20,000 nucleotides of DNA, taken from IMG/VR virus record IMGVR_UViG_3300030333_001711, one strand, 5' to 3'. The notes under the pieces are model-generated. The model saw nothing but the letters and a program-made list of their open reading frames with translations. It was not told where the DNA came from and did no database searches. The stretch is from an uncultured virus (IMG/VR IMGVR_UViG_3300030333_001711). Taxonomy: Duplodnaviria; Heunggongvirae; Uroviricota; Caudoviricetes. The translations under genes and the position numbers were made by a program. The number at the start of each line of letters is the position of its first letter. Position 1 is the first letter of the stretch. This document shows positions 9,339-19,340 of the stretch, in pieces.

Positions 9339-10337
9339 ATGAGTTATGTTGATGTCAAGTACGCACGTCTTGTAGGCAGTCGTCTTGATCTCTTCAAGGA
9401 AAAGAAGACAAACCTATACAATTTTAGATGCCCTTATTGCGGAGACTCACAGAAACATAAGTCTAAAGCAAGAGGGTATTTTTTCGTCAAGGGTTCTGAT
9501 TTTATATTCAAGTGTCACAACTGTGGTGTTGGTAGAACACTAGGAAATTTCTTGAAGGATAATGCTAGAGACTTATACGATCAGTTTGTCTTAGAAAGAT
9601 ATAAGATGGGATTGACAGGTAAAAGTACAAGAGTTGCTGAACCAAAGTTTACAAGTCTTCAAACCAAACCAATCTTTAATACAGGTACTAAGATTCCAAA
9701 AATCTCAGACCTAAATAAAGAACACCCTGCAAGATCCTACCTTGAATCGAGAAACATTAATGGAGATAAACTTGATAGAATTTTCTATGCAGAACGTTTC
9801 AAAGAGTTTGTTAATAAACACAAACATACCTTTGACAATCTGCAAAACGATAGTCCAAGGATTATAATACCACTCATAGACCAAAGTGGAAAATGGTTTG
9901 GAATACAAGGGAGAGCAATCTCATCCAATCCAAAACTAAGATACATTACTATTATTTTCGATGAAACAAAACAAAAAGTCTTTGGTCTCGACACAATCGA
10001 TAGCAACAAGACAGTCTACATCGTGGAAGGACCGTTTGATTCCCTCTTCTTGGAAAACTGTGTTGCTATGTGCGGGTCCGATCTTGATCCTAGGACGTGT
10101 GGTTGGAGCGATAGTGTTTTTGTTTTTGATAACGAACCACGCAACAAACAAATCACCGACCGAATTGCAAAAGCAATATCAGGAGGTTACAAAGTCGTCA
10201 TCTGGAATAACTCCATAGAGGAAAAAGATGTCAACGATATGATTCTGTCTGGACATAATGTTCAAAGTATAGTAGAATCAAACACCTACTCAGGGTTAAC
10301 AGCACAAGTTAAATTTCAAAACTGGAAAAAAGTATGA
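9339..10337 (+). CDS. gp61: DNA primase (T4 gp61-like)
   Basis: Zn-ribbon RCPYCGDS...KCHNCG, RIIIP...QGR, and TOPRIM motifs VEGPFDSLF and FDNEPRN...KDVNDM. Confidence 0.95.
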   Translation: MSYVDVKYARLVGSRLDLFKEKKTNLYNFRCPYCGDSQKHKSKARGYFFVKGSDFIFKCHNCGVGRTLGNFLKDNARDLYDQFVLERYKMGLTGKSTRVAEPKFTSLQTKPIFNTGTKIPKISDLNKEHPARSYLESRNINGDKLDRIFYAERFKEFVNKHKHTFDNLQNDSPRIIIPLIDQSGKWFGIQGRAISSNPKLRYITIIFDETKQKVFGLDTIDSNKTVYIVEGPFDSLFLENCVAMCGSDLDPRTCGWSDSVFVFDNEPRNKQITDRIAKAISGGYKVVIWNNSIEEKDVNDMILSGHNVQSIVESNTYSGLTAQVKFQNWKKV

Positions 10338-12661
10338 ACGTAATTAAAAGGGATGGCACTGCCGAACCTCTCAACCTAGACAAGATACATCAAATGGTTG
10401 AGTTTGCCTGTGAAGACATAACAGGTGTATCATCATCACAAGTAGAAATGAATAGTGGTCTACAATTCTTTGATGGTATTGAATCAGAACAGATTCAAAA
10501 TATTCTTATTAAATCTGCGAGTGATTTGATTAGTTTAGATTCACCTAACTATCAGTTCGTAGCAGCAAGATTACTATTGTTTAGTGTTCGTAAACAAGTA
10601 TTTGCTGATTGGAATAATACTGGGTATCCTAAACTCAAAAGTCACGTTGAGACTTGTGCAGAAGCAGGAGTATATGATGGTGGAATCCTAAAGAAATATG
10701 ACGATGAAGAGTGGGAAGAACTAAATTCTTATATAGATCACCAACGTTGCTATGGATTTACATATGCAGGGTTGAGACAGATCGTAGATAAGTATCTTGT
10801 ACAAGACCGTAGCACTGGTAGAGTATATGAGACTCCTCAGTATATGTACATAATGGTTGCTGCAACCTTGTTCCAAGATTACCCTAAAGATAAAAGACTC
10901 GATTATGTCAAACGCTACTACACAGCAACCTCCAAAGGGAAAATCAACGTCCCAACTCCAGTTCTCGCAGGTGTTAGAACACCTCTTCGGCAGTTTGCGT
11001 CTTGCGTTTTGGTTGATGTTGACGACACCTTGGATAGTATTTTTACTTCTGATATGGCCATTGGTCGTTATGTTGCACAAAGGGCAGGGATTGGTATCAA
11101 CGCAGGTCGCATCCGTGGGATCAACAGTAAAATCCGTGGTGGAGAAGTCCAACACACAGGTGTTGTACCGTTCCTCAAAAAGTTTGAAAGCACTGTCAGA
11201 TGTTGCACTCAGAATGGCATTAGAGGTGGATCAGCGACTGTCCACTTCCCCATCTGGCACCAAGAAATAGAAGATATTATTGTTCTAAAGAACAACAAAG
11301 GCACAGAGGATAACCGTGTCAGAAAATTAGACTATAGTATTCAGTTCAGTGAGTTATTCTATAGAAGGTTTATCGAAAATGGAGAAATCACACTCTTCTC
11401 ACCACACGATGTACCAGGATTATATGATGCTTTTGGAACTCCTGAGTTTGATGCACTGTATGCTCAGTATGAGTTGGATGAATCAATACCTAAGAAAAAG
11501 ATAGGTGCACAAGATCTTATCCTAAACTTCTTGAAGGAAAGAGCAGAGACTGGTCGTCTATACATTATGAATATAGACCACTGTAATAGTCATAGTTCAT
11601 TCAAAGACAAGGTTAATATGAGTAACCTATGTCAGGAGATAACTCTACCTACCGATCCTTTAGATCATATAGATGAAGATGGTGGTGAGATTGCATTGTG
11701 TATTTTATCTGCTATTAACGTAGGTAAACTCCGTAGTCTTAATGAGTTAGAAGAACTATGTGATCTTGCAGTTCGTGGACTAGAAGAACTAATTGATTAC
11801 CAACGCTATCCTGTTGCAGCAGCACGACGTAGCACCCTTGCAAGACGCTCCTTGGGCATCGGATTCATCGGTCTAGCACATTACCTAGCAAAGAATGGAT
11901 TTAAGTATAACGATCAAGGTGCATATGATATAGTACATAACCTTACTGAAGCATTCCAATACAATCTTCTTAAAGCATCAAACGAGATAGCAAAAGAGAA
12001 GGGTGCTTGTGATGGTTTCTCTCACACAAAATACTCTGATGGAATCTTACCAATAGATACATATAAGAGTGAGGTAGATCAGATAACAAAAGAGGAATAC
12101 AAGTATGATTGGGAATCTCTTAGGGCATCTATCTTGGAGCACGGTCTCAGGCACTCAACACTGTCCGCACAAATGCCTTCAGAGAGCAGTTCCGTTGTGT
12201 CAAATGCAACCAATGGAATCGAACCACCTAGAGACTACTTGTCCGTTAAGAAGTCAAAAAAAGGACCTCTTAAGCAGATTGTTCCAGGGTTTCCCCATCT
12301 GAAAAACAAATACACATTACTTTGGGATATGCCATCTAACGAAGGATATATCAAAGTCACATCAGTTATGCAAAAGTTTTTTGATCAGGCAATTAGTGGT
12401 AACTGGAGTTATAATCCAGAGAACTATGATAACGATGAAGTGCCTGTCTCTGTTATGGCACAGGATCTTCTTACCACATACAAATATGGTTGGAAAACTT
12501 CTTACTATCAGAATACATATGATGCTAAGAAAGAAATTGAAGAACCTGCACATCCAATGGGATGGAGGGATGATATACCTATGGATGAAACCAATCAAAG
12601 ATTAAATCAACTCATACAAGAATTAGAACAGGAGGAAGACTGTGACAGTTGCAAAGTTTAA
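10334..12661 (+). CDS. nrdA: Ribonucleotide reductase class Ia alpha subunit
   Basis: N-terminal ATP cone (VIKRDG), SCVL, SNLCQEI, MPSESSS, KTSYY and C-terminal CDSCKV. Confidence 0.97.
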   Translation: MNVIKRDGTAEPLNLDKIHQMVEFACEDITGVSSSQVEMNSGLQFFDGIESEQIQNILIKSASDLISLDSPNYQFVAARLLLFSVRKQVFADWNNTGYPKLKSHVETCAEAGVYDGGILKKYDDEEWEELNSYIDHQRCYGFTYAGLRQIVDKYLVQDRSTGRVYETPQYMYIMVAATLFQDYPKDKRLDYVKRYYTATSKGKINVPTPVLAGVRTPLRQFASCVLVDVDDTLDSIFTSDMAIGRYVAQRAGIGINAGRIRGINSKIRGGEVQHTGVVPFLKKFESTVRCCTQNGIRGGSATVHFPIWHQEIEDIIVLKNNKGTEDNRVRKLDYSIQFSELFYRRFIENGEITLFSPHDVPGLYDAFGTPEFDALYAQYELDESIPKKKIGAQDLILNFLKERAETGRLYIMNIDHCNSHSSFKDKVNMSNLCQEITLPTDPLDHIDEDGGEIALCILSAINVGKLRSLNELEELCDLAVRGLEELIDYQRYPVAAARRSTLARRSLGIGFIGLAHYLAKNGFKYNDQGAYDIVHNLTEAFQYNLLKASNEIAKEKGACDGFSHTKYSDGILPIDTYKSEVDQITKEEYKYDWESLRASILEHGLRHSTLSAQMPSESSSVVSNATNGIEPPRDYLSVKKSKKGPLKQIVPGFPHLKNKYTLLWDMPSNEGYIKVTSVMQKFFDQAISGNWSYNPENYDNDEVPVSVMAQDLLTTYKYGWKTSYYQNTYDAKKEIEEPAHPMGWRDDIPMDETNQRLNQLIQELEQEEDCDSCKV

Positions 12662-13835
12662 ACTTAACAACGACGATCAACAAATGCCAAAGACAAAAAT
12701 TAAAGGAGTAACGGTATTCAATAAAGAAAAGAACAATACCAATCCTCCTATGTTCTTCGGACCACCTCTAGGAGTACAAAGATATGATGGTGCTAAGTAT
12801 CCAGTGTTTGATAAACTAACTAATCAACAACTAGGATACTTCTGGAGACCAGAAGAGGTCTCATTACAAAAAGATCGAAGTGACTTTGCTACATTAAATG
12901 AAACACAGAAACACATCTTCACGTCAAATCTCAGGTATCAGATCCTCCTTGACTCCGTACAAGGTCGTGGTCCTGGTCTTGCTTTCATCCCTTACTGTTC
13001 GATACCTGAGTTAGAATCTGCTATGATTGCGTGGGAATTTTTTGAGATGATACACTCAAAAAGTTACACACATATTATTAAGAATGTATATCCAGACCCA
13101 TCAGTTGTCTTTGACACTATCTTAGACGATGAAAAGATACTTGCACGTGCTAAGAGTGTTACAGAAGCGTATGATGACTTCATAAACGCTGCACAACAGT
13201 ATGGATCTGGTAATATGTGGGTACACAACCTTGACGGTGTACCTCTCGGTCACTATGAACTCGTTGAATTAAAACGTAAACTTTATAGGGCAGTAGTAAA
13301 TGTCAACATTTTGGAAGGAATTCGCTTCTATGTCTCCTTTGCGTGCTCGTTTGCATTTGGAGAACTTAAACTTATGGAGGGATCAGCAAAAATTATCTCC
13401 CTCATCTCAAGAGACGAAGCACAACATCTTGTCCTTACTCAACAAATCCTCGGAAAGTGGGCACAAGGAGACGACCCAGTAATGCTCCAGATAATTAAGG
13501 AGGAGAAAGATAGAGTAACTGAGATGTTTGTCAACGCAGTAAACGAAGAGAAAGCGTGGGCAGAATACTTATTTAAAGATGGTAGTATGATAGGATTGAA
13601 CGCTAAACTATTAGGACAGTATGTAGAATGGATTGCTAATCGTAGAATGAAAGCGATAGGAATAGATCCAATCTATGATATACCTTTAAGAAACAATCCA
13701 CTACCTTGGACAGAGCACTGGTTAAACTCCAGAGGACAACAGAATGCACCACAAGAAACTGAAATAGAATCATATGTAGTAGGTGCAATCAAACAAGACG
13801 TAACCTCTGACACCTTCAAAGGGTTCGAGTTGTAA
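12642..13835 (+). CDS. nrdB: Ribonucleotide reductase class Ia beta subunit
   Basis: FWRPEE, LDSVQGR, EMIHSKSY, LEGIRFYVSF, RDEAQH and APQETEIESY. GTG start with an AGGAGG RBS at 12630-12635. Confidence 0.96.
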   Translation: MTVAKFKLNNDDQQMPKTKIKGVTVFNKEKNNTNPPMFFGPPLGVQRYDGAKYPVFDKLTNQQLGYFWRPEEVSLQKDRSDFATLNETQKHIFTSNLRYQILLDSVQGRGPGLAFIPYCSIPELESAMIAWEFFEMIHSKSYTHIIKNVYPDPSVVFDTILDDEKILARAKSVTEAYDDFINAAQQYGSGNMWVHNLDGVPLGHYELVELKRKLYRAVVNVNILEGIRFYVSFACSFAFGELKLMEGSAKIISLISRDEAQHLVLTQQILGKWAQGDDPVMLQIIKEEKDRVTEMFVNAVNEEKAWAEYLFKDGSMIGLNAKLLGQYVEWIANRRMKAIGIDPIYDIPLRNNPLPWTEHWLNSRGQQNAPQETEIESYVVGAIKQDVTSDTFKGFEL

Positions 13836-13863
13836 CAGAACGGGTATTAAAACCTTTTAGTTG

Positions 13864-13871
13864 TATAAATA
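13864..13871 (+). promoter_or_regulatory. T4-like late promoter (TATAAATA)
   Basis: Exact consensus in the intergenic DNA after nrdB, upstream of the riboswitch-like island. Confidence 0.7.
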
Positions 13872-13911
13872 TATGTGAATGGTGACATTTCTCTAAGAAT
13901 ATGTTATCATT

Positions 13912-14150
13912 ATTTACAAACGTTCATCTAAATGATTAGTCTTGCACTATCGGGGTTTCTAATCGCTGAACACAATCCATCTCATTGGGAGATGTCTTGT
14001 TCAGAGTGGAACCAGAATAGGGTAGAGATTATGAGCGATCAGAATCTTATACCTGATGCCAAGGAGTATCTTATAGATTACTTCAGAACAAAGGTATCCG
14101 ACGATAGATGTGATGTCTTTATCATTGGACGCAAGTAAGTCGCGGAACGG
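13912..14150 (+). ncRNA. Downstream-peptide (glutamine-II riboswitch)-like element 1, with an ORF inside its P2 loop
   Basis: P1 CGTTC(13921-25)/GAACG(14145-49); P2 TCTA.ATGAT(13927-36)/ATCATTGGA(14121-29); junction CGCAA; possible pseudoknot ATTTAC(13912-17)/GTAAGT(14135-40). The family assignment rests on the recalled consensus and the YRG-peptide context. Confidence 0.6.
13932..14138 (+). CDS. Small protein with a hydrophobic N-terminus, nested in RNA element 1; paralog of 14163-14351
   Basis: 68 aa ORF that aligns without gaps to the next ORF (C.E.........S...L.P..[KR]E.LI[DE]). Confidence 0.7.
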   Translation: MISLALSGFLIAEHNPSHWEMSCSEWNQNRVEIMSDQNLIPDAKEYLIDYFRTKVSDDRCDVFIIGRK

Positions 14151-14359
14151 TACGTTCATCCTATGATTCATCTACTTGCTTTACTCATTGCAACTAACGG
14201 TTTTACCTGTGCAGAGATTGCTGCAAAGGTAGAGAAAGCAAAGAGTTATCCAGATCTTACACCTCAAGAGAGGGAAGAACTTATAGAACTCTATACAGTT
14301 TATTTGCCAGAGGCGATGGGAGTAGAATGTAATTGGGACGCAAACGACTGAAGGAACGG
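14138..14359 (+). ncRNA. Downstream-peptide (glutamine-II riboswitch)-like element 2, with an ORF inside its P2 loop
   Basis: P1 CGTTC(14153-57)/GAACG(14354-58); P2 TCCTA(14159-63)/TGGGA(14334-38); CGCAAACGACTGAAGGAACGG tail; pseudoknot AGTCG(14138-42)/CGACT(14345-49). Lies directly upstream of a YRG-motif peptide gene. Confidence 0.68.
14163..14351 (+). CDS. Small protein with a hydrophobic N-terminus, nested in RNA element 2 (ends WDAND)
   Basis: 62 aa ORF, paralogous to 13932-14138. Its last codons are the conserved RNA-motif nucleotides. Confidence 0.7.
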   Translation: MIHLLALLIATNGFTCAEIAAKVEKAKSYPDLTPQEREELIELYTVYLPEAMGVECNWDAND

Positions 14360-14395
14360 ATCTTAAAAACATCCAACTACTTTAGGAGTAAACAA

Positions 14396-14524
14396 ATGGC
14401 ACAAGTAACTTATCGTGGTATCCCTTATGATACCGACGCTCGTGTACAGAGTCAGAAGACTCAACAACCACAACAAAAGAATCTCGTTTATAGAGGTCTA
14501 AAAGTAAAGGAGGAGAACAAATGA
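14396..14524 (+). CDS. DUF4278-like YRG-motif peptide (42 aa)
   Basis: AGGAG RBS at 14384-88, ATG at 14396. MAQVTYRGIPYDT...LVYRGLKV has two YRG motifs. Confidence 0.85.
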   Translation: MAQVTYRGIPYDTDARVQSQKTQQPQQKNLVYRGLKVKEENK

Positions 14525-14613
14525 TGATTGTTACTCAGATAACCCTCCTTATGGCAGTTGCCCTTTCACTATTTTATTTTGAAGTCCGTCTACTGCAAAG
14601 ATTGGAGGGATAA
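14521..14613 (+). CDS. 30 aa hydrophobic peptide (not in the ORF track)
   Basis: AGGAGGAG RBS and ATGA overlap with the upstream stop. MMIVTQITLLMAVALSLFYFEVRLLQRLEG. Confidence 0.65.
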   Translation: MMIVTQITLLMAVALSLFYFEVRLLQRLEG

Positions 14614-14618
14614 GGTCT

Positions 14619-14807
14619 ATGTTAAGAATCCATTTTAGTTGGGGTCTTGACTATGATTTACCAGAGTATGATCCTGAGATCCACGATCCGAAAGAGGTCT
14701 TCGCTATGCTATGCTATAGAGGAGTTCATTACGCTAAATGGGTTCGATTAGATACATTCAATATAAATAACTGGTTTCTGCATAACCCTAGACAAACAGA
14801 AAATTAA
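14619..14807 (+). CDS. Small protein with a YRGVHY motif
   Basis: GGAGG RBS upstream. Contains LCYRGVHY, resembling the DUF4278 motif. Confidence 0.7.
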   Translation: MLRIHFSWGLDYDLPEYDPEIHDPKEVFAMLCYRGVHYAKWVRLDTFNINNWFLHNPRQTEN

Positions 14808-14816
14808 TGTTATAAT
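14789..14816 (+). promoter_or_regulatory. Sigma70-type promoter for talC (extended -10)
   Basis: TAGACA (14789-94), 16 bp spacer, TGnTATAAT (-10 at 14811-16). A TATAAATA also occurs at 14762-69. Confidence 0.55.
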
Positions 14817-14818
14817 AT

Positions 14819-14845
14819 AGAGATCCGCAAGGGTCTCTTTTTTTT
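14819..14845 (+). terminator. Rho-independent terminator
   Basis: AGAGATCC-GCAA-GGGTCTCT with a GNRA loop and a long T-run. Confidence 0.85.
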
Positions 14846-14880
14846 ACTCGAACTAAATAATGACAAAAAGGAAACGTCCA

Positions 14881-15546
14881 ATGAAAATATTTCTAGACTG
14901 TTCTGATCCAGAATTACTTAAACCTGCAATAGAAACAGGTTTAGTTGATGGAGTAACAACAAACCCATCTCTAATGAAAAAGCAAGGGATGGAACCTATG
15001 GATGTAATCCAAAAAATTACAGAATTATTTTCGTGGAGTTCGTCAGTTAGTGCTGAAGTCGTTGGAGAAACAGCAGACGATATGCTAGAGATGGCAGTAG
15101 ACTACTATCAGATAGCACCTAACGTAACAATTAAATTACCCTGTAACGTAGAAGGATTGAAAGCGTGTAGTGATCTTACAGAAGATGGTATCAAAACAAA
15201 TGTAACTTTAATCTTCTCAGAAGCACAAGCAGTTCTTGCAGCAAAAGCAGGTGCAACATATGTCTCACCTTTTGTAGGACGTGTTAATGACAATTCATTT
15301 GATGGTATAGGATTGATTAAAGGTATATCAGATTTGTATATGATGCACGACATAGAGACACAGATCTTATCTGCTTCTATAAGGGATGTTAAACAGGTCA
15401 CAGACAGTTGGAAAGCAGGTGCTGATGTAGTTACTATGCCAATAGGTATTTTTTGGAAAATGTATCAACACGTCTTGACAGACATAGGACTTGCACGTTT
15501 TAATGAAGACTGGAAAGCATTACAATCTGACTTACAAAATGGATAA
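14881..15546 (+). CDS. talC: Transaldolase (TalC/Fsa-type), an auxiliary metabolic gene
   Basis: MKIFLD, GVTTNPSL, TIKLP (Schiff-base lysine), NVTLIFS, YVSPFVGR and ASIR. An alternative start exists at 14860. Confidence 0.95.
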   Translation: MKIFLDCSDPELLKPAIETGLVDGVTTNPSLMKKQGMEPMDVIQKITELFSWSSSVSAEVVGETADDMLEMAVDYYQIAPNVTIKLPCNVEGLKACSDLTEDGIKTNVTLIFSEAQAVLAAKAGATYVSPFVGRVNDNSFDGIGLIKGISDLYMMHDIETQILSASIRDVKQVTDSWKAGADVVTMPIGIFWKMYQHVLTDIGLARFNEDWKALQSDLQNG

Positions 15547-19153: not shown

Positions 19154-19239
19154 AGGTAGATCGTGAAGTTTTGTAACTTCCTCGATCTTTTTTTACAAAG
19201 GACCCGAAATTATCGTCACCCTGCGTACAAACTGCTCGT

Positions 19240-19340
19240 AAACCAAGACCTATAGGCAGTATAATACTTCGTCTTTCTATCCAGTAGTGAGGGATTACTG
19301 GAAATAAGTTTCGCATCTACCCTTGGTGCCCTACTTAAAT
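19240..19340 (+). ncRNA. Structured psbA leader, PhotoRC-II-like RNA motif (boundaries approximate)
   Basis: Hairpin TCCAGTAGT-GAGGG-ATTACTGGA (19280-19302) and downstream CCCTACTT able to pair with the loop region. Its position upstream of a cyanophage psbA matches the recalled PhotoRC-II motif. Confidence 0.65.

Follow-up and report, generated by a model that had tools for sequence, protein, structure and literature searches.

A cyanophage operon leader resembling a composite glutamine riboswitch with genes in its aptamer loops

Two gene-bearing units in the nrdB-talC spacer

We analyzed a 20,000-nucleotide (nt) stretch of DNA (hereafter the window) that belongs to a T4-like cyanomyovirus and is contained in a viral metagenome record of 24.7 kb (IMG/VR IMGVR_UViG_3300030333_001711). 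The spacer between nrdB (12642-13835), which follows nrdA (10334-12661), and a transaldolase-like gene (talC, 14860-15546) is occupied by a two-unit element, a candidate composite riboswitch in which each unit encloses a small gene. In named cyanophages, the nrdB-talC spacer holds small conserved open reading frames (ORFs) annotated as T4-GC 429-432. The pattern CGTTCATCY-N170-200-GGACGCAA-N4-20-GGAACGG matched twice in the window, exactly at 13921-14150 and 14153-14359, where a preliminary description of this DNA had placed the repeated unit. Across 200 dinucleotide-preserving shuffles, this composite motif had a mean count of 0.00 and a maximum of 0. The sequence joining the two units, GGACGCAA..GGAACGG..CGTTCATC, is unique in the window (14127-14160), again with 0.00 expected.

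A scan of IMG/VR for the junction pattern returned at least 120 loci, which together with the window and four named phages gave 126 junctions for analysis. With this number of loci among the matches listed, the element is widespread. Units are either long, enclosing an ORF, or short, with the same flanks around a short hairpin. Among the junctions listed, 60/126 are short-long, 30/126 long-long, 20/126 short-short and 11/126 long-short, and 5/126 are incomplete; long inserts span 144–228 nt between CGUUC and GACG. Both units hold an ORF in S-TIM4 and P-SSM4. In the corresponding position, P-RSM6 and P-SSM7 have a short first unit and a second unit that, as in the window, bears an ORF, so that the short-loop variants which the preliminary description had proposed to look for exist both in these phages and among the listed IMG/VR loci. 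One locus of 1166 nt (L081) contains three units in a row (short-long-short) with two junction matches, indicating that the element is extendable beyond two cores.

Each unit of the window contains a complete ORF on the forward strand, coding for a two-cysteine microprotein. ORF1 (13932-14138) encodes 68 amino acids (aa) and ends in GRK* with the stop codon TAA at 14136-14138, and ORF2 (14163-14351) encodes 62 aa and ends in WDAND* with TGA at 14349-14351. Comparison with PHROG assigned ORF1 to phrog_6471 (E 3.4e-27) and ORF2 to phrog_504 (E 6.9e-11); Pfam gave no match for either. Neither is preceded by a Shine-Dalgarno sequence. In the relatives, the ATG is found 10–13 nt after the C of CGUUC in 41/41 long first units and 9–16 nt after it in 91/91 long second units, and the frame stays open to within -14 to +8 nt of GACG in 40/41 first units and -3 to +15 nt in 91/91 second units. 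The mean pairwise difference at codon positions 1/2/3 amounts to 0.445/0.337/0.570 in first units and 0.526/0.361/0.596 in second units, an order of variability (3 > 1 > 2) common to both ORF sets, and synonymous changes account for 58% and 42%, respectively, of the single-step codon differences.

Nearly all unique nested proteins (102/107) fall into one BLAST-linked cluster. The ORF1 family has exactly two cysteines, Cys23 and Cys60, both invariant in the 36 sequences aligned out of 38, and the ORF2 family likewise has exactly two, Cys16 and Cys56, invariant in 84 of 88 sequences taken into the alignment; rows of the named phages were left out of both alignments. A profile-profile comparison of the two families (hhalign) gave a probability of 96.6% and an E-value of 4.9e-10 over 40 columns spanning both cysteines and, judged by sequence, the families are distant paralogs. 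The AF2 models are helical hairpins with a mean pLDDT (predicted local distance difference test) of 78.7 for ORF2 and 79.8 for ORF1, and a Foldseek search of the PDB with the ORF2 model returned no match at E<=0.001.

The inserts might instead be long, variable extensions of an RNA helix in which the open frames are accidental, and the fold of 13915-14400 is indeed more stable than that of shuffled sequence (z = -3.06). We consider this highly improbable, as a frame starting at a fixed ATG stays open across the insert in 131/132 long units and as the codon pattern, the synonymous excess, the PHROG matches, the two invariant cysteines per family and the reasonably confident helical models all speak for proteins. 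The complete coding ORFs reported in the preliminary description are therefore real genes, and from their sequences we regard the inserts as conserved protein genes under purifying selection.

Aptamer flanks and short-loop relatives

The tie to glutamine riboswitches comes from relatives with short loops. In the spacing class of the window (16 nt from the core to GGAACG), short-short loci reach 38.4–43.6 bits on the Rfam model of the type-1 glutamine riboswitch (glnA RNA, RF01739), above its gathering score of 35. The short-loop first units of P-RSM6 and P-SSM7 score 34.9 and 31.0 bits on this model and 33.1 and 22.0 bits on the type-2 model (Downstream-peptide RNA, RF01704; gathering score 33). 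Because short-loop homologs score as glutamine riboswitches, the flanks of the gene-bearing units can be read as glutamine-aptamer parts, which decides the main refuting condition of the preliminary description in its favor. The Downstream-peptide/glutamine-II pseudoknot layout it had assumed found no support, since the core fits type 1 better.

In the window, both genes lie within the loop of a helix that directly follows CGUUCA and closes beside GACG. P2 is formed around ORF1 by 13927-13936 (UCUAA and UGAU with one bulged A, holding the ORF1 start codon) and 14121-14129 (AUCA and UUGGA). Its nine pairs (13927-13931/14125-14129 and 13933-13936/14121-14124) are all standard, and the complementarity of ATGAT at 13932-13936 with ATCAT at 14121-14125 described earlier is indeed present. 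Around ORF2, P2' pairs UCCUA (14159-14163), the last base of which is the A of the start codon, with UGGGA (14334-14338), again with standard pairs throughout. All these strands, like those given below, are on the forward strand.

With the invariant words as anchors, pairing was counted in 97 unique strand pairs from long units. P2 positions 0 and 1 are invariant (UA and CG, 97/97 each), position 2 is paired in 96/97 (CG 86, UG 5, UA 5), position 3 in 83/97 (CG 41, UA 16, AU 15, UG 9, GC 1, GU 1) and position 4 in 83/97 (AU 69, UA 13, CG 1). The mean contiguous length of P2 was 5.58 pairs in long units compared to 4.04 with shuffled partners (sd 0.128, maximum 4.44), and 5.40 compared to 3.89 in short units. 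Given this same contrast to the shuffles, P2 is preserved in long units to the degree seen in canonical ones. A structure alignment of 29 unique of the 30 long-long loci, including the window, had 93.6% of the cells in model helices paired (28–51% in slid controls) and a covariation score of 0.110, compared to 0.044 for shuffled alignments and reached by 0/500 shuffles. P2' is 100% paired in these loci, with CG 14, UA 7, AU 5 and UG 3 at columns 308/514. Thus, the stem proposed to close around each ORF is borne out by covariation across genes of 144–228 nt. The contiguous P2 includes one or more bases of the start codon in 95/133 long units and the entire start codon in 34.

Several points count against a glutamine aptamer in the window itself. 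A search of 13800-14560 against Rfam at E<=10 returned no glutamine family, RF01739 found nothing in the window's own record, and RF01704 yielded only a 9-nt match of 4.7 bits at 14351-14359. The family assignment, accordingly, rests on homologs and on feature-by-feature matching, and mismatches occur in the P2 of long units in 14/97 cases at position 3 and in 14/97 at position 4. That standard covariance searches could miss the element had been anticipated, and we take the absent match as a limit of the models and not as absence of the element; the 174–197 nt inserts of the window presumably exceed what RF01739 can align.

RNA-library contigs from one study match 13877-14357 and, on another contig, 14371-14795 without mismatch, which we treat as a weak hint only: such contigs cannot show transcript ends, levels or strand, DNA was possibly present in the libraries, and the start at 13877 lies upstream of the predicted transcript start (see below), which likewise tells against the interpretation. 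Contigs from three RNA-library runs have 14162-14335 replaced by 9–10 other letters and represent short-loop variants of the second unit in the same communities. Apparent depth peaks in the RNA libraries at 14305-14398 were discounted, being due to the conserved core common to many relatives.

An alternative explanation could be that the flanks are conserved for reasons other than glutamine, for example as initiation or coupling signals or as processing or cassette-recombination sites, the gene-bearing aptamer being dead. The lack of an Rfam glutamine match in the window would agree with this, and the occurrence of all four short/long combinations, together with the short-loop joints in the three RNA-library runs, resembles cassette gain and loss at fixed sites. 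Furthermore, as the nested ORFs have no Shine-Dalgarno sequence, the conserved bases before the ATG could serve initiation. However, P2 is kept alike in long and short units, in both about 1.5 pairs above shuffled partners, compensatory changes extend across 144–228 nt, the P3 helix described below covaries with or without genes in the units, and the core bases outside the ORFs, CGUUCA and GGAACGG, are invariant in the 29 unique long-long loci. We therefore regard a non-glutamine origin of the flanks as very unlikely.

The distribution of the element was further examined in species-representative genomes (genome_contigs), using an exact pattern with inserts of 145–175 nt only. Of 85 matches, 5/85 had both P2 pairing and a spanning ORF. 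These five (L145, L160, L169, L177 and L205) are metagenome-bin contigs with a GC content of 0.38–0.42, labelled Synechococcus (a contig of 193,981 bases), Verrucomicrobiales, uncultured bacterium, Gammaproteobacteria and Euryarchaeota, and they are probably mis-binned cyanophage DNA. In isolate cyanobacterial host genomes, no element was found by this exact pattern scan restricted to inserts of 145–175 nt.

Arrangement of the two cores

The bases that complete the aptamer are distributed over both units. In unit 1, the junction core J23 of the outer aptamer, CGCAAGUA (14130-14137; RF01739 consensus CGGAAGUA), includes the first two bases of the ORF1 UAA and is followed by the P3 5' strand AGUCG (14138-14142). 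In unit 2, a shortened J23 without GUA (CGCAAA, 14339-14344) precedes the P3 3' strand CGACU (14345-14349), which pairs with AGUCG of the first unit, and then the junction J31 GAAG with GGAACGG (14350-14359); this last segment matches the RF01739 consensus GAAGGAACG and holds the 9-nt RF01704 match. The first CGUUC (13921-13925), the 5' strand of the outer P1, can pair with 14354-14358 in a nested arrangement or with 14145-14149 in a tandem one. Where the units meet, GGAACGG-UA-CGUUC (14144-14157) would form a local inner P1 hairpin in the nested model (14145-14149/14153-14157, loop GUA) with five standard pairs. In either register, the P1 pairing of CGUUC with GAACG in the window consists of five standard pairs.

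The genes reach into this core. The final codons of ORF1 (GGA CGC AAG UAA) and the tail of ORF2 (UGG GAC GCA AAC GAC UGA) consist of aptamer core bases, and both stop codons lie within conserved core bases, overlapping J23/P3 in ORF1 and P3/J31 in ORF2. The earlier observation that RNA-motif bases contain the stop codons was thus correct, although the sites are these junctions and not a pseudoknot strand.

The P3 helix links the two units. In the spacing class of the window, AGUCG follows AAGUA in unit 1 and CGACU precedes GAAGGAACG in unit 2, with compensatory variants AAUCG/CGAUU (one locus), AGUCA/UGACU (five loci) and AUUCG/CGAAU (one locus); GGUCG/CGACU in two loci retains a G.U pair. No uncompensated variant was found among the loci listed for this class, and P3 covaries between units whether or not these carry genes. 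The junctions CG(G/C)AAGUA and GAAG that flank P3 are present in the window but form part of a single core only if the arrangement is nested, and the full family consensus is reproduced only by AAGUA of unit 1 together with GAAG of unit 2. In short-short loci of this class, the RF01739 alignment begins at the first CGUUC, extends to the second GGAACG and treats the inner unit as a 38–41 nt insert in P3; aligned alone, the inner unit scores <=34.1 bits compared to 43.6 for the nested alignment. The linker from GGAACGG to CGUUC is 2, 3 or 4 nt long in 74, 49 and 3 of the 126 junctions listed (0–8 nt were allowed), which fits the length of a hairpin loop.

Alternatively, the units could be two independent aptamers in plain tandem, each closing its own P1 (13921-13925/14145-14149 and 14153-14157/14354-14358), with the inter-unit helix as a kissing or pseudoknot contact. 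Such a layout is compatible with the identity of CGUUC and GAACG in both units, by which either register gives standard pairs, and with the order of transcription, in which the first GGAACG emerges about 210 nt ahead of the second. The passage on tandem glnA RNAs in Weinberg et al. (PMC2864571) also counts in its favor, as do loci of a second spacing class, which Rfam aligns per unit and in which single short units score 27.8–36.7 bits. However, neither core would be complete, since unit 1 has no GAAG junction and unit 2 lacks GUA and the P3 5' strand. The covarying inter-unit helix would cross both P1 helices, the top Rfam score belongs to the nested alignment, and the linker keeps to 2–4 nt at 126/126 junctions listed. 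Constrained folding gave -123.5 kcal/mol for the tandem form without P3 and -125.8 kcal/mol for the nested form.

The nested arrangement in turn faces several difficulties. The P1 strands are invariant in the 29 loci, so that covariation cannot decide between the two registers; of the covariation proposed as a check in the preliminary description, P2, P2' and the inter-unit P3 do covary and P1 does not. The second spacing class (e.g. L003, L005 and L023) has quasi-palindromic AGCCGACU-like 8-mers in both units, and a U-to-A change in unit 1 is always paired with an A-to-U change in unit 2. The shared helix contains two A.C mismatches there, and Rfam prefers the per-unit alignments just mentioned. 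Some variants of this class repair the A.C mismatches (AGUUGACU, AGUUUGCU). Finally, unconstrained folding reached -131.6 kcal/mol, so forcing the nested model costs 5.8 kcal/mol, and the model helices are absent from the minimum-free-energy structure predicted for 13915-14400 without constraints. This structure is, however, no guide for a 486-nt RNA whose folding also depends on tertiary and ligand contributions.

Weighing these points, we lean towards the nested fold as the likelier state of the RNA. A tandem layout with a kissing P3 appears rather unlikely, and an RNA that toggles between the nested and tandem registers less likely still. The head-to-tail aptamers of the preliminary description are in place as two units, but they are not simply independent, as the inter-unit helix covaries and RF01739 aligns the nested form.

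Expression platform, proposed mechanism and wider meaning

Upstream of the element, a promoter-like site on the forward strand (GTGACA-17-TATCAT, 13882-13910; 10 of 12 consensus positions, with TG before the -10 box) ends about 10 nt before the aptamer and predicts a transcript start at about 13917, roughly 4 nt before it. In 90/117 unique upstream sequences of relatives, the 60 nt preceding the first CGTTC include a site that matches at least 9 of 12 positions, and in 81 of those 90 the -10 box ends 7–12 nt before CGTTC. In several relatives (e.g. L016, L010 and L121), a short palindrome such as GGTCTATAATAGACC or GTGTTAGTATTAACAC surrounds the -10 box and may act as an operator or fold into a 5' hairpin; the promoter region of the window has no obvious palindrome.

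Downstream, the Shine-Dalgarno sequence AGGAG (14384-14388) precedes a gene for a 42-aa peptide (14396-14524, forward strand; MAQVTYRG...), which belongs to phrog_5049 and matches the DUF4278 family PF14105 (14396-14521; 25.5 bits, cut-off 25.3). This DUF4278/IF17-like gene agrees with the YRG-motif peptide previously noted at 14396, and YRG occurs in 105/113 unique downstream peptides examined in relatives. In the passages on IF17 in Klahn et al. 2018 (PMC6212724), DUF4278 proteins are considered IF17-like candidates for glutamine-synthetase inactivation and glutamine binding is described to enhance IF17 synthesis; ligand binding is postulated there to melt a duplex that blocks the ribosome-binding site.

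A candidate expression platform lies at 14348-14385 on the same strand, where CUGAAG (14348-14353) pairs with CUUUAG (14380-14385) in the local minimum-free-energy fold. CUGAAG holds the ORF2 UGA and the junction GAAG, and CUUUAG overlaps the AG of the AGGAG ribosome-binding site. Between the two strands, after GGAACGG, a small hairpin H (14358-14361/14371-14374) shows compensatory changes in relatives. The variable pair of the platform is kept in 88/90 sequences (GU 34, AU 32, GC 22; no A.C), the one sequence left out of the 91 being a mis-parsed inner unit of the triple locus. Speaking against the platform are a weak consensus energy (-2.68 kcal/mol) and the fact that only one-sided changes occur in it. 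Consensus folding of the region gave no structure with one alignment and a structure with another. We therefore treat the CUGAAG/CUUUAG helix as a supported hypothesis only for a platform that blocks the ribosome-binding site.

The remainder of the operon (14521-14848) contains a 30-aa hydrophobic ORF (MMIVTQITLLMAVALSLFYFEV..., 14521-14613), which starts in ATGATGA overlapping the DUF4278 stop codon and has no PHROG or Pfam match, and a 62-aa ORF (14619-14807) of phrog_6192, both on the forward strand. A terminator-like hairpin (14819-14838, forward strand) with a T run behind it closes the operon. A strong second promoter-like site (TAGACA-16-TATAAT, 14789-14816; 11 of 12) overlaps the end of the phrog_6192 ORF and lies directly before the terminator hairpin and talC. 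The only gathering-level Rfam match in the window is a PhotoRC-II RNA at 19216-19315 (62 bits, gathering score 39). No gathering-level match to manA RNA was found in the window by Rfam; in P-RSM6 (L003:2426-2611) and P-SSM4 (L005:1165-1350), manA RNAs of 188 and 184 bits lie near the same small-gene cassette. On the other side of the element, the listed nrdB frame begins at a GTG and shares its first 20 nt (12642-12661) with the end of nrdA, and the annotated nrdA and nrdB of S-TIM4 and P-SSM7 overlap likewise.

Taken together, 13917-14395 is probably the leader of a cyanophage small-gene operon and likely forms a composite, type-1-like glutamine riboswitch in which two cores share P3 and the loops of P2 and P2' hold genes. 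In this composite riboswitch, the outer P1 would join 13921-13925 with 14354-14358 and P2 would close around ORF1, and P3 (14138-14142/14345-14349) would enclose an inner core consisting of the local P1 hairpin and P2' around ORF2. Sensing nitrogen status and translating the nested genes probably compete on this one RNA. In the folded aptamer, which glutamine should favor, P2 and P2' would bury both start codons and keep the nested genes off. As GAAG can be used either by the core or by the CUGAAG/CUUUAG helix, folding should hold GAAG in the core and free the DUF4278 ribosome-binding site, turning this gene on at high glutamine. This direction matches what is postulated for the gifB riboswitch.

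Conversely, a ribosome on ORF1 or ORF2 would have to open P2 or P2' and so melt the aptamer. Termination inside the core would extend this opening to P3, the inner P1 and the CUGAAG/CUUUAG helix, and a ribosome ending ORF2 on the UGA in CUGAAG should free the DUF4278 ribosome-binding site as well. Glutamine could thus act in opposite directions on the nested genes and on the IF17-like gene of this message, and translational coupling would provide an override. The full picture of a logic device, in which glutamine-induced folding switches the nested genes off and the IF17-like glutamine-synthetase inhibitor on, ribosomes reset the sensor, P1 acts as a toggle and the loops serve as gene landing pads, is offered tentatively as one possibility.

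Elements of this organization are found in other systems. In the mgtA Mg2+ leader of Salmonella, the translated ORF mgtL lies in a ligand-sensing leader, and ribosome position and RNA fold interact. Leader peptides of this type are short and regulatory and are located between stem-loops, whereas here conserved protein families are found in aptamer loops and share codons with the core. Group I and II introns are self-splicing RNAs with ORFs for homing endonucleases or maturases in peripheral loops, and ORF-containing and ORF-less variants coexist. As in these introns, an entire protein gene is accommodated in a hairpin loop of a structured RNA, with variants of both kinds; in contrast, the RNA here is a putative metabolite sensor and the cargo a microprotein.

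Among glutamine riboswitches, the likeness to type 1 (glnA RNA; the Synechocystis gifB leader as treated in the riboswitch passages of PMC6212724) comprises P1 CGUUC/GAACG, P2 directly after CGUUCA, the core GACGCAAGUA, P3 and GAAGGAACG. It extends to the position as a 5' leader before an IF17-like gene, the candidate helix blocking the ribosome-binding site and the short-loop relatives above the Rfam threshold. Unlike type 1, however, P2 and P2' here each enclose a conserved gene of 53–68 codons, a second, circularly permuted core lies within P3, the aptamer includes start and stop codons, and the element is phage-borne and, in the window, invisible to the Rfam model. With type 2 (Downstream-peptide, RF01704), it shares the words CGUUCA, GACGCA and GGAACGG and the location upstream of a short DUF4278/YRG peptide gene, as in the marine picocyanobacterial systems covered in passages of PMC2864571 and PMC6212724. 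In contrast to type 2, the window has no 3' hairpin enclosing GGAACGG (there is no flanking stem, and hairpin H follows instead), and the best family scores of relatives fall on RF01739, with RF01704 finding only 9 nt in the window. Weinberg et al. 2010 (PMC2864571) reported that some glnA RNAs are arranged in tandem, and these resemble our element in having two glutamine-aptamer cores side by side in one leader; the passage in question mentions no shared helix, nesting or loop genes. Glutamine riboswitches in T4-like cyanophages are already known, as a passage of PMC9964418 states. Our full-text search of a limited literature collection returned no description of genes inside an aptamer or of a shared helix.

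Riboswitch aptamers are usually treated as compact non-coding domains. Here, two hairpin loops of a validated aptamer class hold complete conserved genes, some of whose codons double as ligand-pocket or junction bases. If functional, the element would be a natural case of translation and metabolite sensing forced to compete on one RNA, testable in culturable phage-host pairs such as S-TIM4/WH8102 and P-SSM4/NATL2A. Covariance-model scans would then systematically miss split aptamers, and riboswitch censuses would be undercounts. Should the tentative logic proposed above hold, phages would gain, lose and exchange small loop genes that inherit nitrogen-dependent control. A functional element would, in addition, link cyanophage infection to the nitrogen status of the host via the IF17-like peptide, a likely inhibitor of glutamine synthetase.

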